This document shows, piece by piece, positions 5,167 to 64,000 of a stretch of DNA of 64,000 nucleotides. Position 1 is the first letter of the stretch. Each line of letters begins with the position of its first letter. Below the pieces are notes generated by a model. The model was not told where the DNA came from and made no database searches. It was given only the letters and a program-made list of their open reading frames with translations. The translations under genes were made by a program, and so were the position numbers. Source of the stretch: Cyanobacteria bacterium auto_48_18 (lineage in GTDB: Bacteria > Cyanobacteriota > Vampirovibrionia > Obscuribacterales > Obscuribacteraceae). The stretch spans positions 32,001-96,000 of the forward strand of contig JAVHQC010000032.1 in assembly GCA_036170915.1 (NCBI GenBank). Reading direction: 5' to 3'.

Positions 5167-5817
5167 ATGGTTCTCAATACATTTGAAGCACTGACAATGT
5201 TAGCAGCCATTCTTGCAATTCTCATTCTTGGCACCACTCATTTGCGCACCAATCTGTCTTTCTATTCGCTGCACACCACAGCCCTTGCGGCAGTAACAGC
5301 CTGGATCGCCAACATTACACATGACTCGCATTTATATGTAGTTGCAGCGGCAGTTTTTGCTATCAAAGGCTGGGTAATTCCTTACTTTCTCAATAGTGTA
5401 ATTAAAAAAATTGGTATCGGCACCGACACTGGTGCTTTCATCGCCGCCCCACTTTCAATGCATCTAGGCGCTCTGCTGCTTGGTTTATCGTATGTAATCA
5501 GCCAGCAAATTCCTGGCCTGATTGGCGACCTTGATTCGCGCATAGGATCTACGGCCGCCATGTCGATTTTGTTCTCCGGGGTGCTGCTAATGCTCACAAG
5601 GCGAGCGGCTATCAGTCAAATTGTTGGTTTTCTCGTGATTGAAAACGGCGTCTATCTGTTTGCCATTACGCAAACTCACGGCATGCCGCTAATGGTAGAA
5701 ATGGGTCTGCTTCTGGAAGTACTAGTGGCGGTAATGGTGGCAGGCTTGCTGCTCTTTAATATCAAAAAGAGCTTTGAGCATATCGATGTCAGCCAGCTTA
5801 CAGAATTAAAGGACTGA
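5167..5817 (+). CDS. hyfE: HyfE-like membrane subunit
   Basis: SQIVGFLVIENG, GMPLMVEMG and C-terminal IDVSQLTELKD typical of HyfE; ATG 5167 follows GAGGA. Confidence 0.88.
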   Translation: MVLNTFEALTMLAAILAILILGTTHLRTNLSFYSLHTTALAAVTAWIANITHDSHLYVVAAAVFAIKGWVIPYFLNSVIKKIGIGTDTGAFIAAPLSMHLGALLLGLSYVISQQIPGLIGDLDSRIGSTAAMSILFSGVLLMLTRRAAISQIVGFLVIENGVYLFAITQTHGMPLMVEMGLLLEVLVAVMVAGLLLFNIKKSFEHIDVSQLTELKD

Positions 5818-5822
5818 GGCCA

Positions 5823-23231: not shown

Positions 23232-26200
23232 TTACACCGGCTGATCTACTGGTTCAGCCCGTGACTCCCGATTACGCATCAATCTTGTCTGCAAGCGATC
23301 CAGATAAATATAAAACACAGGGGTGATATAGAGCGTCACCACCTGCGATACCAGCAGACCACCCACTACAGTTAAACCTAGAGGCTGCCTTGACTCCGAA
23401 CCGGCGCCCAGACCCACGGCAATAGGCACAGCCCCCATCAGGGCCGCCATAGTGGTCATCATAATCGGCCTGAAGCGAGTCAGGCAGGCTTCATAAATTG
23501 CCTGCTCGGGAGGTTTGCCGTGTTCGCGTTCGGCATCGAGGGCAAAGTCAATCATCATAATGGCATTTTTCTTGACGATGCCAATAAGCATGATCAGGCC
23601 GAGAAAACCATAGATATCCAGATCATGGTGCGTCACCATCAGCACAATCAGCGCGCCTAAACCGGCAGACGGCAAACCAGAGAGAATCGTAATAGGATGC
23701 ACAAAGCTTTCATAAAGAATGCCGAGCACAATATAAATTACCAAAATGGCAATCAGAAGCAAAACCCAGAGATTGGCAAATGAGTCTTCAAAGGCCGCGG
23801 CAGTGCCCTGAAAGGCGGTTGTAACAGATTTAGGCACCACTTGAGCGGCTATTTGATTGATGGCAGTGACAGCGTCTCCCAACGACGTGCCCTGCTTCAA
23901 ATTGAAAGAAATAGTGACCGACGAGAATTGCCCCAGATGGTTAACCAAAAGCGGACCTACGCCTGTTTCTATCTGAGCGATGGTATCAAGAGGCACTAAT
24001 TTGCCTGTGCTGGACCGCAAAAACAATTGCTTGAGCACAGCCGGATCTCGATAGAAGCGAGGCATTACCTCAATAATCACCCAGTATTGATTTGACGGAG
24101 TGTACATGGTTGAAATCTGACGAGTGGCGTAGGCGCTGGAAAGCGCGTCCTCCACTTGTTGCATGGTCAAGCCTAACTCAGAACACTTATCGCGATTGAC
24201 AGTGAGGTGAATTTCTGGATTATCCACCTGCATGTCGCTGGCTACGTCGGCCACTCCCGGCAGCTCTTTCACTTTCTCAAGTAGTGCTTTGCTGGCTTTG
24301 TAGAGTTCTTCACGATTGGGACTCGACAAAGTAAATTGGTACAGCGATTTTGTTACCTGGCCGCCGATTGTGACAGTGGGTGGATTTTGCAAAAATGAAT
24401 TGATACCAGGAACGGTGGCTAGCTTATCCGACAGCTCGCCGATTACTTCGTGAATTGACTTCTTGCGCACATCTTTAGGCTTAAGCACGATAAGAATGCG
24501 CCCCTGATTGAGAGCAATGTTGGGGCTGCCGTTGCCAACTCCTAAACTTGACATATAGCTTTTGACATTGGCATCTTTAGCAATAATTTCAGTCAAGCTT
24601 TTATGCAGCCTCACCATGGCATCATATGAGGTGCCCTGTTCGGCCTCAGTCATACAAACTATTTGTGAGGTGTCTTCCGTAGGCATAAATCCTTTAGGAA
24701 TAACGACAAACAGATAAGCAGTGGCGACAAACATCATGGTGAAAATAACCATCACCGATGGCTTATTGCTCAAAGCTATAGAAAGCGACCAATCATATAA
24801 AGCCAACCCTCGCTTAAACACGCTCTCTGCGGCGCGTACCAGCAGGCCCTGTTCTTCTTTCTTCTCGGCTTTAAGAAAACGGCTGCAGAGCATGGGCGTA
24901 AGGCTGATGGAAATAAATCCTGAAATCAAAATGGCAATTGAGATAGTTACGGCAAATTCATTGAAAAGACGGCCCACAATGCCGGGTAAAAGCAAAACCG
25001 GAATGAACACCGCCACCAGAGATAGAGTCATAGATAGAATGGTAAAGCCAATTTCTCTTGAGCCATTTAGCGCAGCCTCCATGGGCGTCTCGCCCAGCTC
25101 CAGGTGGCGCACTATGTTTTCCAGCATGACGATGGCATCGTCAACAACAAAACCGACAGAAAGAGACAGGGCCATGAGCGACAAATTATCGAGACTGAAA
25201 CCGAGCAATTTCATCGCCGCAAAAGTACCGACAACAGAAATAGGCAGAGCCAAACTGGGAATAACGGTAGCCGACAGATTGCCGAGAAAAACGAAAATCA
25301 CCATGACCACAAGAGCCACGGTCAAAAGCAGCGTAAACTGCACATCTTGAACCGATTCGCGAATAGTCTGCGACTGGTCGTAAAGCACATCTAAATGAAC
25401 AGACTCTGGTGTGATTGATTTAAAGGTGGGCAACAATTTCTGAATGCTGTCTACAACCTGAATCGTATTGGCACCAGGCTGCTTTAGCACGGCCAAAATT
25501 ACTGCAGGCTTGCCGTTAAACTCGCCGCCTGATTTATCATTTTGCACACTGTCAATTACACGGCCAAGGTTCGAAAGCCTGATTGGAGCGTTGTTCTGAT
25601 AAGCAACAATGACCGGTTTATAAGCCTCGGCATCAAGCAATTGGCCATTTGATTGAATGGTAAAAGCCTGATGCTTACCCCAGAGCGTGCCGGTGGGCTG
25701 GTTTTGATTAGCCGACATCACAGCGCTCATGACGTCATTGATGCCCAGTCCATAAGTGGCGAGCCTCTGTGGATTAACTTGCACACGCACAGCGTATGCC
25801 TGCGAGCCATTAACTTGTACCTGAGCCACTCCGCTTATGCGGGAGATGCGCTGAGCAATTAAAGTTTCAGCAAAATAATCGACTTTATGCAAAGGCAAAC
25901 TATCAGAACTGACCGCCAGATAAATGACCGGCTGGCTGGCCGGATTGACTTTGGCAAAAGTGGGAGGCATGGTCATCTGCGGCGGCAACTGTTTAGAAGC
26001 GGCTGTGATTGCCGCTTGAACGTCAAGCGAAGCGCCATCCATATCGCGACTGGGATCAAACTGCAAAGTAATTAGTGATTGGCTGAGCGTGCTGGTGGAA
26101 GTCATCTGCGTTAAACCGGCAATGGTGGCAAATTGTTTTTCCAGGGGCATCGATACCGCCGAAGCCATGGTTTCTGCGCTGGCACCAGGCAGAGTACCGG

Positions 26201-26342
26201 TTATCTGCAGGGTGGGAAAATCGACGTTAGGCAAGTCACTAATAGGCAGCGTTCGATAGCCCATCAAACCAAAAAATAGAATTGCCACCATCACCAGTGT
26301 GGTCATTACCGGCCTTTTGATAAAAATGGCGCTAAGATTCAT
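23232..26342 (-). CDS. RND efflux permease, MdtB/MdtC (MuxB/C)-like, second copy
   Basis: FIKRPVMTTL, LPNVDFPT, GFVVDDAIVMLENI, GIVKKNAIMMIDFA and RFRPIMMTT motifs. Confidence 0.95.
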   Translation of the reverse strand: MNLSAIFIKRPVMTTLVMVAILFFGLMGYRTLPISDLPNVDFPTLQITGTLPGASAETMASAVSMPLEKQFATIAGLTQMTSTSTLSQSLITLQFDPSRDMDGASLDVQAAITAASKQLPPQMTMPPTFAKVNPASQPVIYLAVSSDSLPLHKVDYFAETLIAQRISRISGVAQVQVNGSQAYAVRVQVNPQRLATYGLGINDVMSAVMSANQNQPTGTLWGKHQAFTIQSNGQLLDAEAYKPVIVAYQNNAPIRLSNLGRVIDSVQNDKSGGEFNGKPAVILAVLKQPGANTIQVVDSIQKLLPTFKSITPESVHLDVLYDQSQTIRESVQDVQFTLLLTVALVVMVIFVFLGNLSATVIPSLALPISVVGTFAAMKLLGFSLDNLSLMALSLSVGFVVDDAIVMLENIVRHLELGETPMEAALNGSREIGFTILSMTLSLVAVFIPVLLLPGIVGRLFNEFAVTISIAILISGFISISLTPMLCSRFLKAEKKEEQGLLVRAAESVFKRGLALYDWSLSIALSNKPSVMVIFTMMFVATAYLFVVIPKGFMPTEDTSQIVCMTEAEQGTSYDAMVRLHKSLTEIIAKDANVKSYMSSLGVGNGSPNIALNQGRILIVLKPKDVRKKSIHEVIGELSDKLATVPGINSFLQNPPTVTIGGQVTKSLYQFTLSSPNREELYKASKALLEKVKELPGVADVASDMQVDNPEIHLTVNRDKCSELGLTMQQVEDALSSAYATRQISTMYTPSNQYWVIIEVMPRFYRDPAVLKQLFLRSSTGKLVPLDTIAQIETGVGPLLVNHLGQFSSVTISFNLKQGTSLGDAVTAINQIAAQVVPKSVTTAFQGTAAAFEDSFANLWVLLLIAILVIYIVLGILYESFVHPITILSGLPSAGLGALIVLMVTHHDLDIYGFLGLIMLIGIVKKNAIMMIDFALDAEREHGKPPEQAIYEACLTRFRPIMMTTMAALMGAVPIAVGLGAGSESRQPLGLTVVGGLLVSQVVTLYITPVFYIYLDRLQTRLMRNRESRAEPVDQPV

Positions 26343-29300
26343 CTGGCTTCCTCAAAATTTTCTTGTTCACTTTCACTGCCGTCGGCTTTGCGAAACCGGC
26401 GCAAGCGTGGCATTCTAAAGGCGGTGCGGCTATTGACAAAGTGCTGAAAGCGGTCCAAATAAATGTAAAACACTGGAGTGATATAAAGTGTCACCAGCTG
26501 CGAAACTAATAATCCGCCCACAATGGTCAAACCTAAAGTTTGCCTAGATTCGGCACCTTCACCAAGGCCGATGGCAATAGGCAGACTGCCGAGAATGGCT
26601 GCCAGCGTGGTCATCATGATTGGCCTGAACCTAACCAAACAGGCTTCATATATTGCTTCTTCAGCAGTCAAATTGCGCTGACGCTTAACGTCTATAGCAA
26701 AATCAATCATCATGATGGCATTTTTCTTGACGATACCAACCAGTAAAATTAAGCCTAGAAAACCATAAACGTCTAAACTCAAATTGAAAATCAACAAGAT
26801 CAAAAGAGCTCCCAGCCCGGCGGAAGGCAGACCCGAGAGAATAGTGAGAGGGTGAATGAAACTCTCATATAAAATTCCCAGCACCAGATAAATGATGATG
26901 ATAGAGATCAGCAATAGTATGCCGAGATTTTTTGTTGAACTCTCAAAGGCTTGAGCGGTGCCCTGAAAGCTTCCGGTCACGTCTTCAGGCAAGCCCTTCG
27001 CCACCAGTTCTTTGACGGGCCCCACAGCGTCGCTGAGTGCCACTCCTGGCTTAAGATTGAATGAAACAGTGACCGATGGGAATTGACCCAAATGGTTAAC
27101 CAATAGCGGGCCGGCACCGCGCTCGAGCCTGGCCACAGTATCGAGTGGTATCAATTGACCCGCGGCTGTGCGCACATTAAACCAGTGCAACATCGAAGGG
27201 TCTTCCATGTACCTGGGCTCCACTTCTAGAATTACCCAGTACTGGTTGGTGGGTGTATAAATAACCGAAACCTGTCTGGCGGAATAGGCGCTATTGAGCG
27301 CATCTTGCACCGATTGGACACTGATACCAAGTCTGGCACATTTATCTCTATCGATTTCGACATTGAGCTGCAAATTCTTCACTTGCAAATCGCTGTTTAC
27401 GTCTTGCAAGTCAGGCATGGCCTTGAGCTTGGCTTCAAAGTCACGAGCGGCTTTGTAGAGCTCCGGCAACTCAGAACCAGACAAGGCCACTTGATACTGT
27501 GCTTTAGTGAGCTGCCCGCCGATGCGAATGCCCCCCAAATTTTGCATAAATAAACTAATGCCTGGCACATTGGCAGTTTTTTGCCGCAGCTCTTGAATGA
27601 CTTGATCGATTGTGGCGTGGCCAGGGCGCTCTGACCTCATTTTTAAGACCATAAAAATGCGGCCTTGATTGACGGCGGCATTGGGGCCACTTGCCCCCAC
27701 CGACGACATGGCACCACGCACGCTACCATTTTCTCTGACGATATCGGCAAGCATAATCTGATGGCGCTTCATTTCTTCAAACGACACGCCTTCAATAGCC
27801 TGAGTCATACCAAATATTTGCCCAGAATCTTCACTGGCCATGAAACCTTTAGGAATCACTGCCAGAAGATAACCGGTGGCACCAAGCATAACAGCGAAGC
27901 TTACCAGCACCATCACCTTGTGCCTTAATGCCGGCTTCAACGTGAAATCATAGAAGCTCAGCAGACGCCCAAAGACTCCCTCAGAAAAATCGTACAGCCA
28001 ACCTTTCTTTTCTTGCGGTCGCAGAAACCGGCTACAGAGCATGGGTGTAAGAGAAAGCGAAACAAAACCGGAAATTAAAATAGCCACTGAAATAGTGACG
28101 GCAAATTCAAAAAACAATCGGCCGATGATACCGCCGAGCAATAATATTGGAATAAATACAGCGATGAGCGATACGGTCATTGATACCACTGTAAAACCAA
28201 TTTCGCGCGAACCATTAACGGCAGCCAATAGTGGCGGCTCGCCGGCTTCGATATGGCGCACTATGTTTTCTAGAACAACAATGGCGTCATCTACCACAAA
28301 GCCCACCGACAGAGTTAGAGCCATGAGCGAAATATTGTTGAGCGTAAAGCCAAACAATTTCATAGCGGCAAAAGTACCGATCAGTGCGATGGGCAGCGTG
28401 ACGCTGGCAATGAGAGTGGTTGAGAGACTTCCCAGCGCGAGAATAATCACGAGAATAACGAGAAAAACGGTAATCAAAAGCGTTAGTTTTACATCGCCTA
28501 CAGAGCGCCTGATGGACAAACTACGATCATAAAAAACATTGAGATTAACAGCACCAGGCAAAACCGCTCTAAAATTAGGCATCATCTTTTTGATGGCGTC
28601 CACAATCTCTATGGTGTTGGTGCCCGGTTGGCGCTGGACGGCTAAAATAATGGCGCGACTGCCGTTGTACCAGCTGGCCACTTTGTCGGTCTGCACGCTA
28701 TCAATGACGGTGCCCACATCTCTTATGCGCACCGGGGCACCATTTTTATGGGTGATAATCAAGGGCATAAAAGCAGCTGCATTGTACAGCTGCCCGTTTA
28801 CCCTGATGTTGTATGCGGTATCAGGTCCCGACAATGTGCCCGTGGGCAAATTGACATTGGCCTGGCGAATGGCCGTGGCTACTTCATCAATGCCGATACC
28901 GTAAGCTGCAAGTTTTCGCGGGTCTACCTGCACATGCGGGGCATAAATTTGCGAGCCCATCACTTGCACCTGAGCCACCCCACTGGTCATGGAAATGCGC
29001 GGAGCAATGACGTTCTCTGCATACTCATCAACTGTATAAAGTGGAAGAGTGGTGGAATTCAAAGCAATATAAAGAATCGGTGCATCAGACGGATTGACCT
29101 TGCGAAAAGTTGGCGGGCTAGGCATACTGGCCGGCAGCCAGGCCCTTGCGGCAACAATGGCAGCCTGTACATCTTGAGCGGCACCATCGATGCTGCGGTC
29201 AAGCGCAAACTGTAAAGTGATGGCCGTAGTACCAGTGGCCGAAGTCGAGTTCATTGATTCGAGGCCGGCAATGCCACTGAATTGTTTCTCTAAAGGAGTG

Positions 29301-29491
29301 GCCACAGCAGAAGCCATGGTTTCTGCGTTTGCCCCTGGTAAACCAGCGCTGACACTGATGGTAGGGAAATCTACTGCCGGTAAATCGTTTACAGGCAATG
29401 TGAAATAAGCAATTAGCCCGAATACGATCAGTGCCACCATAGTTAGTGTGGTCATCACCGGACGCATAATAAAGGGCAGAGAAATATTCAA
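26339..29491 (-). CDS. RND efflux permease, MdtB/MdtC (MuxB/C)-like, first copy
   Basis: Same motif set (GFVVDDAIVVLENI, KKNAIMMIDFA, RFRPIMMTT). Probable TTG start at 29491 after GAGGA; 4-bp overlap with the next gene. Confidence 0.95.
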   Translation of the reverse strand: MNISLPFIMRPVMTTLTMVALIVFGLIAYFTLPVNDLPAVDFPTISVSAGLPGANAETMASAVATPLEKQFSGIAGLESMNSTSATGTTAITLQFALDRSIDGAAQDVQAAIVAARAWLPASMPSPPTFRKVNPSDAPILYIALNSTTLPLYTVDEYAENVIAPRISMTSGVAQVQVMGSQIYAPHVQVDPRKLAAYGIGIDEVATAIRQANVNLPTGTLSGPDTAYNIRVNGQLYNAAAFMPLIITHKNGAPVRIRDVGTVIDSVQTDKVASWYNGSRAIILAVQRQPGTNTIEIVDAIKKMMPNFRAVLPGAVNLNVFYDRSLSIRRSVGDVKLTLLITVFLVILVIILALGSLSTTLIASVTLPIALIGTFAAMKLFGFTLNNISLMALTLSVGFVVDDAIVVLENIVRHIEAGEPPLLAAVNGSREIGFTVVSMTVSLIAVFIPILLLGGIIGRLFFEFAVTISVAILISGFVSLSLTPMLCSRFLRPQEKKGWLYDFSEGVFGRLLSFYDFTLKPALRHKVMVLVSFAVMLGATGYLLAVIPKGFMASEDSGQIFGMTQAIEGVSFEEMKRHQIMLADIVRENGSVRGAMSSVGASGPNAAVNQGRIFMVLKMRSERPGHATIDQVIQELRQKTANVPGISLFMQNLGGIRIGGQLTKAQYQVALSGSELPELYKAARDFEAKLKAMPDLQDVNSDLQVKNLQLNVEIDRDKCARLGISVQSVQDALNSAYSARQVSVIYTPTNQYWVILEVEPRYMEDPSMLHWFNVRTAAGQLIPLDTVARLERGAGPLLVNHLGQFPSVTVSFNLKPGVALSDAVGPVKELVAKGLPEDVTGSFQGTAQAFESSTKNLGILLLISIIIIYLVLGILYESFIHPLTILSGLPSAGLGALLILLIFNLSLDVYGFLGLILLVGIVKKNAIMMIDFAIDVKRQRNLTAEEAIYEACLVRFRPIMMTTLAAILGSLPIAIGLGEGAESRQTLGLTIVGGLLVSQLVTLYITPVFYIYLDRFQHFVNSRTAFRMPRLRRFRKADGSESEQENFEEAR

Positions 29492-29531
29492 AAACAATTC
29501 CTCACCGCACAGCAAAGTTGATTTGATTTAC

Positions 29532-31064
29532 TTAGCGGCGCACTGAATCAGTTACCTTTTGCACTGGGGTCTCTTCTTTAACAGTGCCGTCACTCTTAAT
29601 TGACGTTTCCACTTCACTATCGTTATCGGCAGCTCTTTCTTTTTGCACTTTCACTTTTGAGCCGGGGCTGAGTTGCAATTGCCCGTCAACAACCACGCTC
29701 TCGCCAACTTTAATGCCACTGGTGATGGCCACCATTTCTCCAGAACTCTGACCGAGTTTTACTTTAACTAGTTGAACCGTACTATCTGGCTTTAACACGT
29801 AGATAGCGTTGCCCTGCTGCGTTGTTTGCACTGCCCGCGATGGCACTACAACCGACTGCCCTGCGGGAGGCATAGATATTAAGACATCCACAAATTGGCC
29901 AGGAAAGAGCTTCTGCCCTTCATTGGCAAAACTAGCGCGCAACAAAATCGTGCCTGTATTAGTGTTGACAGTATTTTCCATAAAGGAAATATGGCCCTTG
30001 ACCGCTTCAGCCTTGCGCCCTTCAACCAGTGCCTGCAACTTCAATGTGCCGTTTGCCTGCGACCGTCTTAAATCGTTGAGATACTGCTCAGGCACGGTGA
30101 CGGTAACGTAAATAGGATTTACTTGAGCGATGGTCACCAGCGGTTGAGTGGAAGTATTCGAAACTACGTTGCCCTCATAGACATTGAGGCTGCCGGTGCG
30201 ACCAGTAATTGGAGAATAAATTTTGGTCCAACTAAGTTGCAGGCGAGCTTGATCTACCAGACCCTGATCTGCGCGCAACGTGCCTCGAGCGGTCTCGATA
30301 GCTGCGCGGTCGCCCCTGGTGACCGCTTTAGCATTCTCGATTACTTTCAGGTCGGCTTCAATGGTGGCTTCAGCCTGAGTAGCGCTGGTCAATACTTGAT
30401 CGCTTTGTTCTTTAGAAACAGCGCCCTCGCGAACAAGCTCAGCGTAACGTGTCATCTGCGTATCGGTGTATTTAGCCTGCGCTTTGTCTCTGCGCAAATT
30501 AGCGTGATACTGACCGATCATAGCCTGGTCACGAGCCAGGTTGGCTTGGGCTGCCTCGACCTGTGCACGGTCACGAGCCACGTGACCTTCTGCTTGAGCT
30601 AAGGCTGCCTCATACGATCTCGGATCGATCTGGAAGAGCAAAGCACCCTTTTTCACCGTTTCACCTTGAGTGAAATGCACTTTCAAAAGCTGACCGCTCA
30701 CCTGCGGCGTAATATTAACTACTGAAAAAGGCGTGACATTACCGATACTTCTGAGTTCAATGGGCAATGCTTTCTGAGTGGCCACCGCTACAACCACCGG
30801 CACAATTTTGTCTTTGCCACTCTTTTCGCCTTTGCCAGAGGTGCCCTGACCGCCTCTTTCGCCAGCCATCTGTTTATTCTCATGATGGCTTAAAGGGCTT
30901 AGTGTATAGGCACCATATGCGCCACCGGCCAGCAGCAAAGCAATCAAACCAAATAGAACCACTTTATTTTGTTTAGGCTTAGGTGAATCATGACGCGCAG
31001 GCACACCCGGAAAATCAGGATTTTCGCGTTTAGTACTGGTACTGGTGTCAAGTTCTTCTTTCAT
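29532..31064 (-). CDS. RND periplasmic adaptor (MFP), MdtA-like
   Basis: N-terminal TM anchor; ITPQVSGQLLKVHFTQGETVKKG; long helical hairpin; IYSPITGRTG; LFPGQFV. Confidence 0.93.
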   Translation of the reverse strand: MKEELDTSTSTKRENPDFPGVPARHDSPKPKQNKVVLFGLIALLLAGGAYGAYTLSPLSHHENKQMAGERGGQGTSGKGEKSGKDKIVPVVVAVATQKALPIELRSIGNVTPFSVVNITPQVSGQLLKVHFTQGETVKKGALLFQIDPRSYEAALAQAEGHVARDRAQVEAAQANLARDQAMIGQYHANLRRDKAQAKYTDTQMTRYAELVREGAVSKEQSDQVLTSATQAEATIEADLKVIENAKAVTRGDRAAIETARGTLRADQGLVDQARLQLSWTKIYSPITGRTGSLNVYEGNVVSNTSTQPLVTIAQVNPIYVTVTVPEQYLNDLRRSQANGTLKLQALVEGRKAEAVKGHISFMENTVNTNTGTILLRASFANEGQKLFPGQFVDVLISMPPAGQSVVVPSRAVQTTQQGNAIYVLKPDSTVQLVKVKLGQSSGEMVAITSGIKVGESVVVDGQLQLSPGSKVKVQKERAADNDSEVETSIKSDGTVKEETPVQKVTDSVRR

Positions 31065-31083
31065 TTTCTCTGCCTGATGTCAG

Positions 31084-31581
31084 TTAAATTTTGGCATTCG
31101 CTTCGGTAAAAATCCCTTTCAAAAGAGACAAGCTTTCTTCAATTGAGTCTAATTTATCGGCAGGCAATTGATCTATTATGCGGGCGATTTCGGCTTGAGC
31201 GATGGCGCGGGTTCCCTGCAAGTGGTTGACACCCTCTTCGCTCAGGCTGAGAATAACATTGCGACGACTGGCCGGATCGCTGTTTCTTAAAACCAGTCCA
31301 GCCTTAACAAGCTTTTCCACCATAATCGACGCGGTGGCATTGGCCACACCAATAGACTCTGCCAGACGGCTCAAGCTTGAGCCCGGACAATTATTGATGA
31401 ATGCCATAACGCGCAACTGTGGCAGTGACGCTGGAGTTTCTGCCTGGCGCAAAACATTGCTGCGCAGGTAATACATTATGTATGGAACGGTTTCCATGAG
31501 CCTGGTAGCTACAAGGTCAGACTTTGCTTTATCAGCCGCAAATTGCGCCTGTGCCCTTTCGGGACGTATTGCTGCTTTCAC
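31084..31581 (-). CDS. MarR-family transcriptional regulator
   Basis: SLPQLRVM...SLSRLAESIGVANATASIMVEKLVKAGLVLRNSDPASRRNVILSLSEEG winged helix; heads the efflux operon. Confidence 0.92.
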   Translation of the reverse strand: MKAAIRPERAQAQFAADKAKSDLVATRLMETVPYIMYYLRSNVLRQAETPASLPQLRVMAFINNCPGSSLSRLAESIGVANATASIMVEKLVKAGLVLRNSDPASRRNVILSLSEEGVNHLQGTRAIAQAEIARIIDQLPADKLDSIEESLSLLKGIFTEANAKI

Positions 31582-48496: not shown

Positions 48497-49789
48497 CTAC
48501 TGCGACATACTGGCCGGAGCTTTGCTATTGAGCGACTGCACCGAGCTTATAGGCTCAGCAATTACTTTTGATTCGTTTTGCAATTCTTCACTGGCTTTTT
48601 GTGCCACCATATCTCCAGCCTGAACATTGCCGAAAATTTCTACGTTGCCATCCATCGTCTGACCCTTGCGCACTGTCACCCATTCCACCACGCCGTCCTT
48701 AACCTTGCAAACAAAAGTATTGAGCGGAGTTGATACCACTGCTTCAAGCGGTACAAAAAGCGATGTTTGTTTGCGACGGGTGGGCCAATAAATATTGCAG
48801 AACATGCCAGGCAAGACATCAAAATCAGGATTGAAATAGTTGAGTTCAACAGGCATGGTGCGGGTATCTTTGTCGAGATTGTTGCTGATGCGAGCAACAG
48901 TGCCCATAAATTTACGACCAGGAAAAGCCGAGACTGAAAATGCCACCTGCGAACCGACAACGACACCAGCAGTGTCAACTTCGGGCACTGGTGCAATTAC
49001 TCTCAACAAATCCATTTGTTTCACCCGACAAATTGGAGGATAGGCGCCGCTGCCATCAGGACCAACATAACTGCCCACGTGCATTTTGCGCTCAGTAACA
49101 TAACCGTTGAACGGGGCGGTGATTTCCAGATAAGAGGCGAAATCAGAATAGTTTTCAAAACCTTTTATGCGTGCGGCCAACTCTTGTTTGCGCATAGTCA
49201 CTTCGTGAGCTTTTGCATTGATGCGCTTGATGAAAGTATTGACTTCCTGTCTGTCTGCTTCAACTGACTGCGACCATTGCACAACGTCATTGTCGGCCAC
49301 CACTCCTGGTACCAGCGATGCTGCATAAACTCGTTGATAAGTAGATTGATCAGCCAATAAATTGGCCTGGCGTTTTTTCAAGTCGGCCTGCAGGTCTTGC
49401 AAATCTGATTCTTCTGAAGCAACAGCAGCTTTAGCCGCGGCCACGCGAGCCAGGGCTTCGTTGCGCGATGCCAAATATTCAGGCGCGTACATGGTGGCCA
49501 TTACTTCGCCTTTTTTAACCACTGAGCCTCGGTCAACGTTAATGGTTTTGATAAATCCTCTAATTTTGGGATAGATGAGCACGTCTTGATAGGCGTCAAT
49601 TTCACCTGGTAACTTATCTTCCCTGAAAAGAGTCTTGGCGGTTACCGGCACAGTTGGCACCGAAACCAGCACCGGAGCCGACGGAGCTTCAACTTTGGCC
49701 GGCTGAAAATATTGATAGGCATAGTAGCCGCCGGCAGCTACCACTGCCGCTATCGCCACCGTCAATCCGATTTTCTTTGCCGACGCCAT
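48497..49789 (-). CDS. RND periplasmic adaptor (MFP)
   Basis: TM anchor; IYPKIRGFIKTINVDRGSVVKKG, ITAPFNGYVTER and LPGMF motifs. Confidence 0.93.
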   Translation of the reverse strand: MASAKKIGLTVAIAAVVAAGGYYAYQYFQPAKVEAPSAPVLVSVPTVPVTAKTLFREDKLPGEIDAYQDVLIYPKIRGFIKTINVDRGSVVKKGEVMATMYAPEYLASRNEALARVAAAKAAVASEESDLQDLQADLKKRQANLLADQSTYQRVYAASLVPGVVADNDVVQWSQSVEADRQEVNTFIKRINAKAHEVTMRKQELAARIKGFENYSDFASYLEITAPFNGYVTERKMHVGSYVGPDGSGAYPPICRVKQMDLLRVIAPVPEVDTAGVVVGSQVAFSVSAFPGRKFMGTVARISNNLDKDTRTMPVELNYFNPDFDVLPGMFCNIYWPTRRKQTSLFVPLEAVVSTPLNTFVCKVKDGVVEWVTVRKGQTMDGNVEIFGNVQAGDMVAQKASEELQNESKVIAEPISSVQSLNSKAPASMSQ

Positions 49790-49804
49790 AAGTTTTTTCC
49801 TTAG

Positions 49805-52800
49805 TTAATGACCATGATCTTCAGGATGGAGCGAGCGAGTGCCTCTTCTGGCGGTGGCTTGAATAATGCAAAATACCAGGGGCAAAAGTGTTAGAACAGA
49901 TGTGGTAGACATCATCAGGCCGCCAATAACAGCGCGACCCAGAGACGCGCTTTGCCCGGTTGAAATGGCCATAGGCACCATGCCTGCAATCATAGCAATC
50001 GACGTCATCAGAATTGGCCGCATACGCATTTGTGCCGCATGCACCGCAGATTCTTCAGCACTCTTGCCCTCTTCTTCGCGAGTTTTCTCGGCAAAAACCA
50101 CAAGCAAAATAGCATTGGCGATGCCCACACCAGTAGACATAATGGCACCCATGAATGATTGAATATTCAGAGTGGTGCCGGTCAAGTGCAGCATGGTCAG
50201 CACTCCCAGTAAAATTGCCGGCGTAGTAGACATCACCACAAATACAATGCGAGCGGCCTGGAAGTAGGCCAGCAACATCAGAGCAATTACTCCTACTGCC
50301 AGCACCAGGCCGCCCAGCAGGTGATTGAAAGTGTCTTTCAGTAGAGGCACCTGACCGGTGACGTCCACAAAAACACCGGCAGGTGGTTTGCCTGCCCGCG
50401 CCACAGCACGCTTAATTTCTTCGCCCACGCTGCCAAGGTCACCACCAGAGACGTTGGCTGTGAGTGAAACCATACGCATCATGTTGTAGCGATCGAACTC
50501 ACCATTGGTGACACCATAGCTGACTTTCGCCACATCAGAAATGAGCGGATGTTGTTCTCTGCGCGTTTTACTGCCAGGATAAATCTTGTCTATCTCAGAA
50601 TTTTCCAGCAAGTCTTTGACGGCCATCTGGTCTTTCCGTCTGCTGCTCATAGTGGGGAACGTTTCAATGTCTTCTTTTGACCGAATTTGATCCTGCGGCA
50701 CCTGTACCTGCACCTGATAAGAAAAACCGCTTTCAGGGTCGCGCCATAGGCTCAAGTGAACGAATCTACTGGAGAAGAAAGCGGGTTGCAGTGACATACC
50801 GATTTCAGCAGGAGTAATGCCCAGCTGACCAGCGAGCTCGCGATCAATATCAATTTCGCAAGACGGATAATCTAGTGCCTGTCCCCATTGTAAATCGCGC
50901 AGACTTTTGACTTTAGCCATCTCTTGCAAAACTTTAGCGGCAAAAATTTTATTGGCAATTAAATTGTGACCGGCAACTTGCACGCAGATTGGTGTCGGCG
51001 AACCAAGGTTCATAATCTGGCTAACAAGGTCGCCTGGCTCAAATGAATATTTAGTGTCGGGAACAGCCTTGGCCAGGCGTTTACGCAAATTGTCTTTGAA
51101 GCGCGCCATATTGATGTGCGCACTTTCTTTAAGTTGCACATCCATCACTGCCTGGTGCGGGCCACTGGTCCATAAGAAAGCTGAGCTGATGGGAAACATC
51201 GGCGGCTGCTGACCGGCGTAACCAAGGCTTTTCTCTACATTCTCAGGACCGGCTTCGGCTTTAATCAACTCAAGTGTTTTGAGGACACGCTGTTCCAGTG
51301 CCTCAACCCGCATACCGGTCGGCGCCGTAATTCGCATACGAAACTGGCTGCTGCCCGAATCAGGAAACAACTCTTTGCCGATGGTGCTGTAGAGCACCAG
51401 CACAAGCGTTACGCTAGCCGCTAAATAACCGCCGACCACAAGATAACGCAGGGGCATCATCACGTGCAACAAGTCAGCCAGCCGGTCTTTCATTTTGTCG
51501 ACAAGATCTGGTTTATGCTCTTTTTTATCTTTGCGGCGGCCAATTTTCTCAGCGTGCTCATCATATTCTTCGTCGCCTTCACCATCTGCCACTCCTTCAT
51601 GCTCATCTTTGAGCAACCAGATGGCCATAATCGGCACCAGGGTTGATGCAAGAGTGGTGGAAGCCACCATGGCAAAACCCACAGCTAGAGACAATGGAAT
51701 GAACAACTCGCGTGTGATGCCCACCATAAAGAACGATGGAATAAATACTGCCACCACTGAAAGCATGGCGAGCAGTCGAGGCACCATTGTCTCCACACAG
51801 GCCTGATAAACGGCGCGCGTTTTTTCCACACCATTGGCCAGGTGGGTGTGCATATTCTCAATGCAAACTGTGGCCTCGTCGACGAGAATGCCGATAGATA
51901 GGGCCAAACCGCTAAGAGTTTGAATGTTGATGGTTTGACCAGTGAGCCACAAACCGACGATGGCAGACATTAAGGACAGTGGAATAGTTGTGACTACAAT
52001 AGCCGTGCTGCGCAGGTCGCGCAGAAAGAGCAAAATCATCAAACCCGGAAGAATTGTCCCGAGCACGCCCTCGTGAAAGACGTCGGTAATGGCCTCGCGC
52101 ACATACTTGCTCTGGTCAAATTCATAGCTGATTTTGACGTCGGCGGGCAAGACAGCCTGCATGCGCGGAAGAGAGGCAGTCAGTGCGTCAACAACCGATA
52201 CAGTAGACGCGTCACCCCTCTTTACAGCTGGAATGTAAACAGTGCGGCGGCCTTGATAAAGAGCGTAGCCTGCCAAAATATCTGAGGCGTCCTCAACTTT
52301 GCCTATGTCTTTGACAAAAATTTGAGGGCCGTGACCAGTGCGAATCGGCAAATAATCAAGCTGGTGAATATCAGGCAAATCGGTATTAACTGGCGCAATG
52401 CGCAAATAATCACCGGTGCGCACGTTACCAGATGGCATGACTTTGTTGCCGGTGGCCAGCGCTTCGACAATTTCATCGCCTGAAATGTTGTAGCGCCTCA
52501 GCTTATCGGCATCGACACTGAGTACGATAGAGCGAATATTGCCGCCAAAGGGCGGCGGCGCTTCAGCACCAGGAACGGTGGCAAGCAGTGGTCTTATTCG
52601 AGTGTAAGCTAAATCTTCGAGCTCTTTGACGCCCTTGGTCTCTGACGACAAAACCAGCTGCCCCACAGGCAAACTGCCCGCGTCAAATCTGAGCACAAAA
52701 GGGTTATAGGTGCCGTGCGGCATGAGGCTGGTGGCACGACTGGCCATGGCGACAATGGTAGCCATAGCGCTAGCCATATCTGTGTCAGGCTGGAAGAATA

Positions 52801-53077
52801 CTTTAATTACCGAGACGTTTTGAATAGTCTTCGACTCAATGTGCTCGATACCAGGTACGTAGAGAAAATACAATTCATAGGTGGAGGTGATGTAGCCCTC
52901 CATCTGCTCCGGCGACATGCCACCATAACCCTGAATAACATAAATGGCCGGAATTTTTAAATCTGGAAAAATGTCGCGCTTCATTGAACTGACAGCCAAA
53001 AACGCCACGCAGACAATGCTTATCACCGCAGCGATAATAGTAATTGGACGCCTCAGGGCAAAACTAATAATCCACAT
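49805..53077 (-). CDS. RND efflux permease (AcrB/CzcA superfamily)
   Basis: FALRRPITI, DIFPDLKIP, GILVDEATVCIEN, ANAILLV and RMRPILMT motifs; ATG at 53077. Confidence 0.95.
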   Translation of the reverse strand: MWIISFALRRPITIIAAVISIVCVAFLAVSSMKRDIFPDLKIPAIYVIQGYGGMSPEQMEGYITSTYELYFLYVPGIEHIESKTIQNVSVIKVFFQPDTDMASAMATIVAMASRATSLMPHGTYNPFVLRFDAGSLPVGQLVLSSETKGVKELEDLAYTRIRPLLATVPGAEAPPPFGGNIRSIVLSVDADKLRRYNISGDEIVEALATGNKVMPSGNVRTGDYLRIAPVNTDLPDIHQLDYLPIRTGHGPQIFVKDIGKVEDASDILAGYALYQGRRTVYIPAVKRGDASTVSVVDALTASLPRMQAVLPADVKISYEFDQSKYVREAITDVFHEGVLGTILPGLMILLFLRDLRSTAIVVTTIPLSLMSAIVGLWLTGQTINIQTLSGLALSIGILVDEATVCIENMHTHLANGVEKTRAVYQACVETMVPRLLAMLSVVAVFIPSFFMVGITRELFIPLSLAVGFAMVASTTLASTLVPIMAIWLLKDEHEGVADGEGDEEYDEHAEKIGRRKDKKEHKPDLVDKMKDRLADLLHVMMPLRYLVVGGYLAASVTLVLVLYSTIGKELFPDSGSSQFRMRITAPTGMRVEALEQRVLKTLELIKAEAGPENVEKSLGYAGQQPPMFPISSAFLWTSGPHQAVMDVQLKESAHINMARFKDNLRKRLAKAVPDTKYSFEPGDLVSQIMNLGSPTPICVQVAGHNLIANKIFAAKVLQEMAKVKSLRDLQWGQALDYPSCEIDIDRELAGQLGITPAEIGMSLQPAFFSSRFVHLSLWRDPESGFSYQVQVQVPQDQIRSKEDIETFPTMSSRRKDQMAVKDLLENSEIDKIYPGSKTRREQHPLISDVAKVSYGVTNGEFDRYNMMRMVSLTANVSGGDLGSVGEEIKRAVARAGKPPAGVFVDVTGQVPLLKDTFNHLLGGLVLAVGVIALMLLAYFQAARIVFVVMSTTPAILLGVLTMLHLTGTTLNIQSFMGAIMSTGVGIANAILLVVFAEKTREEEGKSAEESAVHAAQMRMRPILMTSIAMIAGMVPMAISTGQSASLGRAVIGGLMMSTTSVLTLLPLVFCIIQATARRGTRSLHPEDHGH

Positions 53078-53081
53078 ACTA

Positions 53082-54581
53082 TTACCTGGTTTTCCCCGAC
53101 TTGCCTTCGACGATATCGACAATTTCAAGGAAAGGTTTTAAATCACCCTGGGCGTAAGATAAAAGTAAAATCGCTCGCCATACTTCAACCTGCGCCACTG
53201 CGTCTTCCACTTCTGCCTCAGCCAGCGCCTTTTCAGCTTGCGCCAGGCTAACCATATCAGTCAGACCTGTGCTGTACCGTTTACTAACTTTGAGTTCTCG
53301 CACTTTAGCCGCTTCAACAAGAGCAGGAGTTTCGTCAGCTACTTTGCGCGCCTGCCTGAGCATGACGCGGGCTCGTGCATCTTTCTTTTCTAGAATTTGC
53401 ATGGCCAGGTCTAAATCAGCTCTGGCCGCCATTTCGTTGTTAACGGCAATGCGCTTCTGGGCCTTTAATGGAAAATATTCCATCACTGGAAAACTAAAGG
53501 AAGCGCCCACCATATAATTAAACACTTGAGGCAATGCGCCACCACCCACGGGGCGAATCGGATTAACTCCATCGCTGCTGCCTTTGCCCCAGACCGACGA
53601 GTTAAACCACAAGTGTGGTCTGTAGGCTTTATCAAGCACTATTTTCTTTGCTTGCCATCTTTGAATTTCAGCCGACTTGAGTAAAGCCAGTGGGTGCGAC
53701 GAAAGATCAATCGGTCGCATTGCTTGAATTTGAGAAGGGCTGCGCACCAGCGGATTGGAAACAATATCAATATCAGTGGTGGCGGTGCCCATTTTTTCGG
53801 CCAGAGCGACCAGTGCCAATTGCGCATTCTTCTCAGATTTAATTACGTTGATTCTGGCTTTTGCTACTTCGTAATCCCAATCAGCTGCTTCCACACCCGG
53901 TTTTAAACCTTCAGCAACAAGTGTTTTGGCTCGCACATTAGCGGCTTTCATATGCGATAACGCAGCTTCTGTGGCGTAAATTATTTGCTTGGCGGCCACT
54001 GCTTCAAGAAAGGCTTCAGCAGCATCATATGCAACATCTAACTGAGTGAGGTTGACGTCGGCACGCGCAGTGCGAGCGTCTGCATAAGCAAAATTATCGT
54101 TGGCGTGGCGCAGGCCAAAATCAACCAGCAGCCAGTTTAAGTTGACACCTTGAAGGTTGTTGACCAGTGGACGCATACTCGATCTTTGTGACACCGGCCC
54201 CGAATCAATTGGCACTGTGTCAAAACCAGACACGTTGTTCATAACCGTGCTGGCCACGCGGTTGCCGGTGATAGCAGACTCTTGAATATCGATATTGAGG
54301 TTGGGCAAATATTGAGTCTTAGCCAGGGTGACATTGGCCATGGATGCCTTAAGTTTGAATCTTTTTGAAGCTATGCTTGGATAGTTGCGCACCGCCACAT
54401 CAACAGCTTCACGAATGGTGATGGCCGATGTCGGACGAATGGGCTGAAATTGAAAATCAATCACGGCAGTTTCGCGGCCGGCGGCCCAGGCCGCGTTAAT
54501 ACAAAACAACAGGCAAAAAAATGCCAGTGAAATGCAGGTGATTTTCTCGATTACCAGGCTGTTTCTAATCAAAGCTTCCAT
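53082..54581 (-). CDS. TolC-family outer membrane factor
   Basis: Signal peptide; ITIREAVDVAVRNYPSI, YLPNL, LNWLLVDFG and RYSTGL motifs; first gene of the OMF-RND-MFP operon. Confidence 0.9.
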   Translation of the reverse strand: MEALIRNSLVIEKITCISLAFFCLLFCINAAWAAGRETAVIDFQFQPIRPTSAITIREAVDVAVRNYPSIASKRFKLKASMANVTLAKTQYLPNLNIDIQESAITGNRVASTVMNNVSGFDTVPIDSGPVSQRSSMRPLVNNLQGVNLNWLLVDFGLRHANDNFAYADARTARADVNLTQLDVAYDAAEAFLEAVAAKQIIYATEAALSHMKAANVRAKTLVAEGLKPGVEAADWDYEVAKARINVIKSEKNAQLALVALAEKMGTATTDIDIVSNPLVRSPSQIQAMRPIDLSSHPLALLKSAEIQRWQAKKIVLDKAYRPHLWFNSSVWGKGSSDGVNPIRPVGGGALPQVFNYMVGASFSFPVMEYFPLKAQKRIAVNNEMAARADLDLAMQILEKKDARARVMLRQARKVADETPALVEAAKVRELKVSKRYSTGLTDMVSLAQAEKALAEAEVEDAVAQVEVWRAILLLSYAQGDLKPFLEIVDIVEGKSGKTR

Positions 54582-60178: not shown

Positions 60179-61594
60179 TTAGTGCGGCGGCATGCCAATG
60201 AAAACAGGCGGCTTTTCGGCAAACTTTAATTTCTTTGATATGGTCGCGTCATCAATATTGTGAGGCTTCAGGTAGACGTAGTAACTATCGTTGCGCTCCA
60301 CCAGGTCATCTTTCGGTTGACTGCTTGCGCTCACCAGCATGTCGTTGCTTATTCGAGCATGCAAATAGTAAGGAATAAGTTGCGTGTAACCAGGTACGTT
60401 AGGCTTAAAGGCATATTTGAGCAGTCGCTCACCAGTCAAAGCCGAAACAACTGCTGGTGAGTTATTGAGCGCCTTGAGGTCAATCTCCTGCCAACTATTA
60501 CCCACTTGAATAAAAAGACGCACCACAGGTTTCATTAAAAACATAGCTTTTTCTGGCTTAGTATTTTTGAGAAAAAGAGTTAAAACATATCCACCGTCTG
60601 CAGTCATCTCGATATCGCGAACGCCCGCTTTTAAGTCGCTGTTCGCCAGGTCTTCCAGGGCCTGCCGCTGATCGAGCCTGGCATTAACAACGCTTTGCTG
60701 ATAACTTGCTACGGCCAAATTGGCAATATAGAGCAAAGACAGCAGCGGTACCAACAGCAATACCATGCGGCCAACATACTTATCAAAGCCTATGCCCAGT
60801 TTGACATTCTCTTGCGCCGATTGACTAGCAGAAATAGCGAAAATGCTTTTAACTGTGTCGCCGACATCGAGTAGCTGCGGTGATCTAGTCGAAGTCTCTG
60901 TACCTGGCTGTTGCGAATGAGTCAACATTTCAGCTCGACCAGCAGTCATGGTCAAAACCCTGTCGGCTAAAGAGGCAATATCCTGGTTGTGAGTAACCAC
61001 AATCAAAGTGAGACTGAAAGCTTTGCGAATATCAACAAGAAGCTGCAATATTTCGCCTTCAGTTTCGCCATCGAGGTCGGCTGTAGGCTCATCGGCCAAT
61101 AAAACACTGGGCGAATTGATGAGCGCGCGAGCGATGGCCACACGCCTTTGCTCACCGCCAGACAGCTCACCCGGATAGGAATCAATACGCTCGGCTAAAC
61201 CAACTCGCACCAGTAATGCTCTGGCTCGAGCATAGGCCTCCTTTTCTGTAAGAGCGCCGCTAACGAGTGCAGGCAAAGCAACATTGTCTATGGCACGCAA
61301 AGCGCTTAGCAAACCAGCAAATTGAAAAACATAACCAATGGTGCCGTTGCGAAAACCAGCCAACTGATTAGCATTTTGTTGCCAAACGACCGTATCGCCA
61401 ATTTGAATGGAGCCGCTACTTGGGCGGCAGATGCCACCAGCCATGGCCAGCAGCGTAGATTTGCCAGACCCGGAGCGCCCCACTATTGCTAGAAATTCGC
61501 CCGGTTGCGCTTCAAAATTGACATCAATGACAGCATTAACCTGAGCGTGGCCTGAATATTGCTTTGTCAGTTGCGAAACAGAAACTGTGCTCAT
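60179..61594 (-). CDS. LolD/MacB-type ABC ATPase fused to a TM helix and a ~170-aa extracytoplasmic domain
   Basis: Walker A GRSGSGKST, signature LSGGEQRR, LLADEPT and VVTH; then a hydrophobic helix and a beta-rich domain ending IGMPPH. Confidence 0.9.
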   Translation of the reverse strand: MSTVSVSQLTKQYSGHAQVNAVIDVNFEAQPGEFLAIVGRSGSGKSTLLAMAGGICRPSSGSIQIGDTVVWQQNANQLAGFRNGTIGYVFQFAGLLSALRAIDNVALPALVSGALTEKEAYARARALLVRVGLAERIDSYPGELSGGEQRRVAIARALINSPSVLLADEPTADLDGETEGEILQLLVDIRKAFSLTLIVVTHNQDIASLADRVLTMTAGRAEMLTHSQQPGTETSTRSPQLLDVGDTVKSIFAISASQSAQENVKLGIGFDKYVGRMVLLLVPLLSLLYIANLAVASYQQSVVNARLDQRQALEDLANSDLKAGVRDIEMTADGGYVLTLFLKNTKPEKAMFLMKPVVRLFIQVGNSWQEIDLKALNNSPAVVSALTGERLLKYAFKPNVPGYTQLIPYYLHARISNDMLVSASSQPKDDLVERNDSYYVYLKPHNIDDATISKKLKFAEKPPVFIGMPPH

Positions 61595-62803: not shown

Positions 62804-64000
62804 TTAGAGGGTAGTGCAACGACTATTTCTTAAGTGTTCTTTCTTGGTCGGGATAATCACGCAGTCATGGTGCCCACCATAATTGGGCAGGTATCCCAGC
62901 GGACGAAGTGAATCATCTTGGGTAAAGATAAAAGCACCACTCTCCTGTCGTTGAAAACCACTAAAGATTTGAACAACAAATTTGCCATCATAAGAAACCG
63001 CCATGGTCTGGCAATCAACACCAATGTTTTTAAATTTCTTGATAATCTTCCATGTCTTCGTATCAACCACACAGCACCCGCTTTTGGCAGGCTTTGCATT
63101 CATCACCGAAACAAACATTTTGCTGCCGTCCATAGAGAAGCAGAGATGGAACGGGCTGGGAAAGTCGCCTACCCATTCTGGATCTTTCACATAAGTAATC
63201 TTTTTCCAATTGCGCGGATCAGCATCAGTTGTGTCAAACACAGCCATATTATTCTGTTCGATATTATTCATCATGGTGAAGAATTTGCCGTCTGGCGAAA
63301 AACCGGCTTCATGGCCGACGCATTTAACGTCTTCAAAATCAATTTCCCATGTATTAGGATTCTCGTGCAACTTAGTAACCGCCAGATTACCAGGCGATCC
63401 TTCCGGATTATGCAGGCAGGCTACAGGCTCCCACGTCTCGCGATCGACAATGACTGCACAAGAAAGCATGCGAATAATTAGAGCAGAATATTTGTTTCCC
63501 GGATGATGCACCACCGCATCTAGACCAGAGAGCCCCTTCATATTGTCTCCCGGTATTTCACCGTTCGAAACACGATTCTCGGCCATCGGAACCATTTCCC
63601 AGTCGATCTTATTGCCCTTAGTGCCTTGCAAATCATACTTGCCGATTTCTGGGGAAATTCTCAATTCTTCTATTCGCAGCTTGCCACCTTTGCGCCAGTT
63701 ATCTTTCAAATTCTTATCCGGCTCTCGACCAATCCAATCGGCGCGGAAAGCCTTAAGCGCCGTCGTCTTAGCCGTGCCCGAAACACGATTGAAAAATGCA
63801 GCAATATCTTTTTGACCATCAGCGGCAGCAAAGCCATTAGCATCAGGGAAGATTGTGATGTGTACGCCCAAACCGATACCGGTTGTCTCTGCCACATCCT
63901 CCATTTTGTTCATTTCGGTGCCATCAAATTCAACTCTGTAAATATGATTACCCTGACCCCACTTACCAAGCATGCCGTGGTCTTCTATTGAAGTAGGTAA
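62804..64000 (-). CDS. Thiocyanate dehydrogenase (TcDH)-like copper beta-propeller protein; 5' end beyond the window
   Basis: Frame is open to position 64000 (LPTSIEDHGMLGKW...). Motifs match TcDH as I recall it: IYRVEFDGTEMN, GLGVHITI, DGQKDI, YDLQGTKGNKIDWEMVP, GHEAGFSPDG, PSPFH, YDGKFVV, GHHDCVIIP, LRNSRCTTL. Confidence 0.85.
   Translation of the reverse strand, partial: LPTSIEDHGMLGKWGQGNHIYRVEFDGTEMNKMEDVAETTGIGLGVHITIFPDANGFAAADGQKDIAAFFNRVSGTAKTTALKAFRADWIGREPDKNLKDNWRKGGKLRIEELRISPEIGKYDLQGTKGNKIDWEMVPMAENRVSNGEIPGDNMKGLSGLDAVVHHPGNKYSALIIRMLSCAVIVDRETWEPVACLHNPEGSPGNLAVTKLHENPNTWEIDFEDVKCVGHEAGFSPDGKFFTMMNNIEQNNMAVFDTTDADPRNWKKITYVKDPEWVGDFPSPFHLCFSMDGSKMFVSVMNAKPAKSGCCVVDTKTWKIIKKFKNIGVDCQTMAVSYDGKFVVQIFSGFQRQESGAFIFTQDDSLRPLGYLPNYGGHHDCVIIPTKKEHLRNSRCTTL

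Follow-up and report, generated by a model that had tools for sequence, protein, structure and literature searches.

A gene related to thiocyanate dehydrogenase (TcDH), which runs off the edge of the 64,000-nucleotide stretch of DNA analysed here (the window), encodes an intact member of the TcDH family that is under selection, and the one published active-site residue that it has exchanged, His482 for glutamine, is exchanged in the same way throughout a large branch of relatives. To our knowledge, TcDH has been described from a few sulfur-oxidisers, and its centre of three copper ions is regarded as unique. The Gln branch seems to make up the larger and more widely distributed share of the family, and it is tentatively proposed to be a distinct copper enzyme with two coppers, or two and a weak third, which in bacteria of lakes, soils, groundwater and the sea would catalyse a periplasmic reaction, so far undescribed, on an N-C-S compound common in nature. 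According to this proposal, the enzyme would be served by an ATP-driven, MacB-type copper loader whose metal loop changed along with it and, in the present lineage, would carry a captured transposase domain as a cytoplasmic handle before its Tat signal.

Gene, protein and fold

Within the window, the gene is a minus-strand open reading frame of 398 residues plus a stop codon, in agreement with the 399 codons open to the window edge that had been described in a sequence-only reading. Completion from the host genome gave a protein of 592 residues, the Met start codon of which lies at C32:96582 on genome contig C32, 582 bases outside the window, with GGAGAG four bases upstream. The N-terminal lysine, the His-His ligands and a twin-arginine (Tat) motif, which the same reading had placed upstream of the window, were all recovered in the completed gene (Table 1).

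The search of PDB sequences matched nine sequences, all of them TcDHs, with 413-446 bits over residues 114-591, and nothing else; the E-values were 5e-124 to 5F75 and 8.5e-132 to 8Q9X. The AlphaFold model of residues 115-592 (pLDDT 80.4) matched twelve TcDH entries with Z 51.4-53.2 and an rmsd of 2.0-2.3 over 453-459 residues, whereas the next propeller fold reached Z 31.1, and the identity to solved TcDHs was 39-43% in the structural alignment. The family membership first proposed from motifs is thus borne out by both bit scores and fold. It had also been foreseen that annotation pipelines would miss the enzyme, and indeed it is named by neither Pfam nor NCBIfam, with a share of its homologues labelled 'thiocyanate desulfurase' in JGI annotations.

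Table 1. Positions of the enzyme gene, its parts and the downstream operon (window numbering unless a residue range or another record is given)
Feature	Position	Strand	Basis
ABC ATPase (1-221), membrane helix (277-295) and predicted periplasmic Ig-like domain ending Met-Pro-Pro-His	60179..61594	-	
MacB/FtsX-type ABC permease, 402 aa, four core membrane helices	61594..62802	-	Pfam FtsX, MacB_PCD
Met/His-rich periplasmic loop of the permease, residues 111-118	62472-62449	-	
TcDH-family seven-bladed beta-propeller, C-terminal 398 residues (195-592)	62804..64000	-	ORF, PDB alignment and fold match
Gln525 codon CAG, His482 equivalent of T. paradoxus TcDH	63008..63010	-	Alignment to 5F75
His424-Glu425: His381 equivalent, then Glu (Gln382 in Tp/Pm-like enzymes)	63308..63313	-	Alignment
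N-terminal part of the enzyme gene, outside the window	G000:C32:96001-96582 = L001:6001-6582	-	Completed from genome
Acidic three-helix domain, IS3-family transposase OrfA-like	Residues 2-64		Pfam HTH_Tnp_1
Internal twin-arginine motif FTRREML and weakly hydrophobic stretch	Residues 69-75		Predicted Tat signal or anchor
Lys103, His135, His136, Gln156 and Tyr164 equivalents, outside the window	K132, H164, H165, Q185, Y193		Alignment to 5F75

The active site

Thirteen active-site residues of TcDH are listed in the available text of PMC6504805, and twelve of them are identical in the enzyme when it is aligned to PDB 5F75. In this alignment, K132, H164, H165, Q185, H241 and E329 correspond to Lys103, His135, His136, Gln156, His206 and Glu288, and D355, H424, H479, H572, D573 and R588 correspond to Asp314, His381, His437, His528, Asp529 and Arg544; Tyr164, Pro291 and Phe436 of TcDH are likewise kept. 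All motifs named in the sequence-only reading are present as written, its residue mapping holds against 5F75, and the glutamine that it had noticed at the His482 equivalent is Gln525. The enzyme motif aligns residue for residue with the mutant chains H482Q and H447Q, which were deposited under the titles 'His 482 replaced by Gln' (6SJI) and 'H447Q' (8YU5/8YU6), and all solved wild-type TcDH sequences compared carry His at this position.

In TcDH, Cu1 is held by His206, Asp314 and His381, Cu2 by Lys103, His135 and His528, and Cu3 by His437 and His482. His482 is reportedly a ligand of the third copper, His136 and Glu288 are said to activate water, and the H482Q mutant of TpTcDH is said to be inactive. 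Measured against the residues of EC 1.8.2.7, the enzyme has twelve and not His482; as judged from the alignment, it is without one defining active-site feature of that class, and therefore it should not be filed as EC 1.8.2.7 on sequence alone.

The cysteine beside Gln525, to which attention had been drawn as well, was rejected as a replacement copper ligand, because the residue varies among homologues. Although 113 of the 121 top homologues (the query with its best 120 of 596) have Cys, 37 of the 81 locus proteins covering the site have Leu, Ala or Val, and Met and Thr are also seen among near-full-length homologues, so that Cys524 is unlikely to be a ligand and no role could be upheld for it.

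The remaining active site is TcDH-like, which would fit an unchanged substrate. A real though minority possibility is that the protein is still a thiocyanate dehydrogenase, in which Gln525 (with Glu425 or a water) would hold a looser third copper, or Cu2 alone would take both electrons, and which a heterotroph would use for detoxification or for some energy, nitrogen or sulfur. The twelve retained residues together with Phe436, Pro291 and Tyr164 speak for it, and so does the single cyanobacterial member with Glu, a possible metal ligand, at the site; it has against it the His of every solved wild-type sequence compared and the activity reportedly abolished in H482Q. Nine alignment columns separate 35 Gln proteins from 18 His proteins resembling the TcDHs of Thioalkalivibrio paradoxus and Pelomicrobium methylotrophicum (Tp/Pm-like), and all nine fall within residues 425-545, the blades around His437 and His482. 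Glu382 and Pro435 are also present in the His-type TcDH of Thiohalobacter; Glu425 was hence rejected as a proven compensation for the glutamine, and the coexistence of Glu382 with His482 in that protein counts against retained thiocyanate oxidation by way of a specific compensation.

In the portions of PMC9456337 at hand, thiocyanate is placed with its nitrogen on Cu1 and its sulfur on Cu2 and Cu3, its carbon is attacked by water, and the modelled electron route leads from Cu2 through Lys103 or His528 to Tyr164; the activity given for TpTcDH is 7-12 micromol per min per mg (thiocyanate:cytochrome c). The three electron-path residues Lys103, His528 and Tyr164 are conserved in the enzyme, and this argues against a non-redox hydrolase, an improbable alternative in which the protein, without a third copper, would cleave the C-S bond of thiocyanate and release cyanate and sulfide for sulfur supply. 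Such a hydrolase would be consistent with intact water-activating and nitrogen-binding residues next to a changed sulfur-side residue, and with a locus that holds no cytochrome or flavocytochrome gene. It is disfavoured, in addition, by the tight binding of copper by sulfide, which is established chemistry, and by the commonest gene clusters of 81 loci, among which no conserved sulfur-assimilation neighbour was found.

Spread and history of the Gln branch

Glutamine occupies the site in 121 of 121 proteins (the query and the best 120 of 596 matches) and in 81 of 82 locus frames, the remaining one being a fragment that ends before the site; these two sets share members. Of 149 representatives at 50% identity, 39 extend over the site (Gln in 32, His in 6, Arg in 1), and 246 near-full-length proteins comprise 223 with Gln and 23 with His, although the Gln share is overstated in these samples because all were retrieved with Gln-type queries. 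Each of 14 close genes encodes the Gln with CAG or CAA. That the Gln is an artefact of sequencing or alignment, or a mutation private to this genome, was practically discounted by the alignment to the mutant chains, the 223 of 246 proteins and the use of two codons. Since Gln is fixed across a large, multi-phylum branch, it is not a quirk of the host.

By record title, the branch includes Obscuribacterales, Methylococcales, planctomycetes, an acidobacterium, Nitrospirota, Reyranella, a Methylocella plasmid and picocyanobacteria, and the titles Flavobacterium, Planktothrix and Drouetiella among the homologues look like mislabelled bins. In cyanobacteria, the Gln-type enzyme with a fused ABC module is patchy, being found in 2 of 61 genomes of one genus (L112:5848-10254 in G472), and Cyanobium and Vulcanococcus records carry the same combination (cluster of P0122). 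In one cyanobacterial genome, G387, the His482 position is occupied by Glu (L113:8361-10034), and the permease and fused ATPase follow about 5 kb downstream. On the Methylocella tundrae plasmid (L089:81-13261), the Gln-type operon lies near cytochrome c peroxidase and cytochrome b genes, and the gene just 5' of it resembles by eye the gene in the corresponding place in Reyranella, for which a weak Pam16 match, below the cut-off, was obtained. No relative was found in the viral contigs searched. The exact His-type motif pattern had no match in metagenomes, and His-type loci were instead retrieved with a His-type protein query.

For the history of the site, trees were built without the trait columns, with P0358 (852 bits to 8Q9X) standing in for the solved sequences. 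The quick tree of 57 rows needed two His/Gln changes, yet the data are compatible with a single Gln clade (p-AU 0.507), and the careful tree of 35 rows (34 of the 57 and the Glu protein) needed one change, with support 63/34 and recovery in 65% of bootstrap trees. The derivation of His-type enzymes from a Gln ancestor, as in the quick tree, was set aside on the p-AU of 0.507 and the weak recovery of the single clade in the careful tree. When the tree is rooted on the distant His-type proteins, His is probably the ancestral state, and a single origin of Gln is likely. Identity is 43.6% between the query and Tp/Pm-like proteins and 37.7% between the latter and the Thiohalobacter TcDH; the Gln branch is hence well inside the TcDH family, a position that also favours retained thiocyanate oxidation.

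The N-terminal domain and the Tat motif

Residues 2-64 match Pfam HTH_Tnp_1 (PF01527) with an E-value of 1.3e-9, above the cut-off, and this domain resembles the genome's own IS3 orfA on contig C10, where an IS3-like element near the contig end (G000:C10:232266 onwards) has orfA and then an orfB-like frame. In the enzyme gene, no orfB frame follows the OrfA-like stretch, which is in frame with the enzyme, and the arrangement is thus not that of an IS3 insertion sequence. Of 309 proteins examined, 20 have the fused domain, namely the query and the 19 clusters nearest to it (67-88% identity); among locus proteins, it is present in 14 of 74. It has 4-7 Lys/Arg against 7-12 Asp/Glu in the 20 proteins, compared with 9 against 6 in the orfA, and its dN/dS is 0.09 (22 of 91 pairs). 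Because the domain is acidic and conserved, it is likely a domesticated piece that has lost DNA binding.

The Tat motif is at the same place in 20 of the 20 closest proteins and TatC is encoded in the genome, and Tat export of the enzyme is predicted from the motif. The N-terminal extensions of other branch members are unrelated and vary from almost none to over 200 residues, so the OrfA-like domain would not be needed for catalysis; its use as a cytoplasmic handle, on an anchor that is not cleaved off, is conjecture. Long extensions before the twin-arginine motif, in which no Pfam match was obtained, were also observed in L039:7215-9461, P0075, P0078 and P0316 (600-750 aa). No publication on a transposase domain preceding a Tat signal was found in a search of the openly accessible literature.

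A helix-turn-helix-like domain on the cytoplasmic side of a Tat motif could suggest a non-catalytic protein, either one for copper binding, storage or sensing whose N-terminal domain relays a signal, or a decaying pseudo-enzyme. Two loci do have broken copies, a split gene in Methylotetracoccus oryzae (L031:7776-9419) and an altered C-terminus in an Actinomycetota bin (L052:7593-9335), which may be real or assembly errors. Such a protein is nevertheless very unlikely, given that all 121 proteins compared (the query and the best 120 of 596 homologues) have the equivalents of His136 and Glu288, that the catalytic part has a pooled dN/dS of 0.023 (26 unsaturated of 91 pairs, 14 genes), and that the helix-turn-helix is acidic and confined to the 20 proteins mentioned above.

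The downstream ABC operon

The permease starts one base after the enzyme stop, and the ATPase start overlaps the permease stop. In place of the CopC or cytochrome partner once envisaged for the locus, the neighbours are thus an ABC permease and an ATPase, and CopC is among the genes not found in the host genome (see below). The domain ending in Met-Pro-Pro-His was modelled as an Ig-like sandwich (pLDDT 91.7) and gave no specific relative by sequence, Atlas features or fold, where generic beta-sandwiches were matched with a best Z of 8.4; Met-Pro-Pro-His is invariant in 37 aligned sequences, all of which were selected by that ending. At least 3 kb of downstream sequence is available for 72 of 80 related loci, and 64 of these carry the permease with the ATPase and anchored domain (34 fused, 30 with the domain separate), whereas 8 have neither permease nor ATPase module, six of the 8 being methanotrophs. 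In the methanotroph and Nitrospirota Gln-type loci L028, L031-L034, L038 and L042, the ABC module is not within reach and may sit elsewhere in the genome.

Each of the 11 His-type loci in which the permease is full-length shows His-Cys or Cys-Cys in the permease loop, in contrast with 0 of 69 Gln-branch loci, whose loops are rich in Met or His and contain His, Met or Cys in 67 of 69. This difference would fit a metal-delivery role that changed along with the enzyme; the changes in permease and enzyme may be one evolutionary event and hence not independent support. The His-type query fetched 19 loci, 18 of which show the His motif while L104 ends before it. A permease homologue was located downstream in 12 of the 19, while 5 have a homologue of the anchored domain close by and 4 have a second permease; seven have no permease within the available DNA, and one has an SCO gene upstream. 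At the His-type loci L097:5710-6333 and L102:4668-5474, a paralogue of the anchored domain has a different end, without the Met-Pro-Pro-His tail.

The association of TcDH with ABC genes has been published with the ABC function unassigned, as far as the accessible parts of PMC5328954 and PMC5744179 go, and in the latter the thiocyanate-induced TcDH clusters contain such ABC genes. The operon described here is of the same kind, which is a further point in favour of retained thiocyanate oxidation. Promoter and terminator scans gave results at chance level. The locus further includes a cupin gene, an SDR gene and one for queuosine salvage, and no neighbouring gene gives a clue to the substrate, which counts against the preferred reading. 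The queuosine salvage gene (PF10343; L001:6494-7750, plus strand) is divergent from the enzyme gene and is not among the commonest neighbours of related loci.

The host genome

The host genome, 86% complete, contains 14 cytochrome c domain matches, two COX1-family (heme-copper) oxidase genes and 14 rhodanese-domain matches; the last are a possible internal source of thiocyanate and would suit retained thiocyanate oxidation. No photosynthetic reaction centre was found in it, and most of the closest homologues have record titles of Ca. Obscuribacter, Obscuribacterales or Melainabacteria, so the host is likely a non-photosynthetic cyanobacterial relative, as it had been described. It appears a less unexpected host than was first thought: the gene was found in 12 of the 13 further genomes of its genus, in 39 of 96 genomes from the family as a whole and in 0 of 204 from the remaining families of its class. 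The retention in 12 of 13 congeners, together with the low dN/dS of the catalytic part, which indicates strong purifying selection, suggests a function that is routinely used.

Cyanase, CopC, SoxY, SCO and PCuAC were not found in this 86%-complete genome, and the SoxY result agrees with the earlier remark that no sulfur-oxidation genes were in view. The use of thiocyanate for nitrogen or energy is weakened by the missing cyanase, SoxY, CopC and SCO, and the missing cyanase and SoxY likewise count against retained thiocyanate oxidation. Of the uses suggested earlier, nitrogen scavenging in particular loses ground, since cyanase was found in none of 61 genomes from the host and related bacteria. 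Cyanase is often absent or silent in true TcDH users according to the available parts of PMC6934394, PMC6504805 and PMC5744179, and its absence is therefore weak evidence; an Afipia homologue is described with Sox and cyanase in the accessible text of PMC8061750. Among 41 chosen Gln-branch hosts (40 Gln, 1 Glu), SoxY was detected in 17 and cyanase in 11; the downstream routes are thus missing from most of these hosts, which speaks for the preferred reading.

Elsewhere in the window, five plus-strand genes at 2124-8752, beside a sulfate/bicarbonate transporter-like gene, form what we take by eye to be a membrane-bound hydrogenase-4/Ech-type cluster. Two RND efflux-type gene clusters (23232-31581 and 48497-54581, minus strand) were recognised by eye from the translations.

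Proposed mechanism

Because the active-site His is Gln throughout the branch, a rebuilt copper centre and a different substrate are considered likely. The reading that we prefer, and to which we give an even chance, is a Tat-exported periplasmic copper dehydrogenase with probably two firm coppers, a rebuilt sulfur-side site and probably another thiocyanate-like substrate. The folded protein would be exported by Tat and may stay anchored, with the acidic transposase-derived domain left in the cytoplasm. The Met/His loop of the permease and the Met-Pro-Pro-His domain might then load copper or remodel the enzyme using ATP. The nitrogen-binding copper, the water pair of His136 and Glu288 and the electron exit from Cu2 through His528 to Tyr164 all appear to be kept, and it is proposed, because those sites are kept, that water still attacks the carbon of an N-C-S group and that electrons pass to cytochrome c and a terminal oxidase. 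The loss of one His from the sulfur-side copper pair would make space for a substituted sulfur, and candidate substrates are an organic thiocyanate, an isothiocyanate or a thiourea-type compound.

Implications

Most of the relatives retrieved with Gln-type queries carry in nature a substitution that was engineered as a laboratory mutant. If the Gln-type enzymes do not oxidise thiocyanate, the 'thiocyanate desulfurase' labels misstate the spread of thiocyanate metabolism, and a hidden reaction would exist in Obscuribacterales, methanotrophs, planctomycetes, Reyranella and picocyanobacteria. If thiocyanate is oxidised, the His of the third copper is dispensable and the mechanism needs revision. 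In either case, the Gln branch offers a minimal three-gene system for probing the TcDH-linked ABC machine. No publication on the Gln-type branch or on TcDH in Obscuribacterales was found by a search of the openly accessible literature.

Comparison with known systems

With the IS3 OrfA N-terminal domain (HTH_Tnp_1), the protein shares the match of residues 2-64, whereas its domain is acidic (that of OrfA is basic), is followed by no orfB and is fused to an exported enzyme. The TcDH of Thiohalobacter thiocyanaticus (BAZ92945.1, P0412), which was used as outgroup, belongs to the same family and shares Glu382 and Pro435 with the Gln branch, but it is 33% identical and has His at 482. The isolated Thiohalobacter protein of FOKN1 did not oxidise thiocyanate, as stated in the accessible part of PMC6934394.

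The TcDH operon of Thioalkalivibrio (Berben et al. 2017, PMC5328954, PMC5744179), as far as the available parts of these sources describe it, has in common with the present one the enzyme gene and, directly after it, a four-helix permease, an ATPase and a membrane-anchored protein; homologues of these three are also located beside His-type genes. The present operon is a compact three-gene form, in which the ATPase is fused to the anchored domain and the permease has no His-Cys, and the second permease/ATPase pair, copCD, fccAB, tatA and the regulator of the Thioalkalivibrio operon are absent from the locus.

The TcDHs (EC 1.8.2.7) of Pelomicrobium methylotrophicum (8Q9X, 8Z75) and Thioalkalivibrio paradoxus (5F75, 5OEX) share with the enzyme the propeller, the Tat motif, 12 of the 13 active-site residues, Phe436, Pro291, Tyr164 and downstream ABC genes. 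The enzyme differs from them in Gln at 482 and eight more diagnostic changes on neighbouring blades, in an N-terminal IS3-OrfA-like domain, in a host in which SoxY, cyanase, CopC and SCO were not found, and in one permease and one fused ATPase where they have two pairs. The mutants 6SJI and 8YU5/8YU6 have the same substitution at the same site; it is a single change in a His-type background there, whereas in the natural branch it is accompanied by co-fixed changes and maintained under selection.
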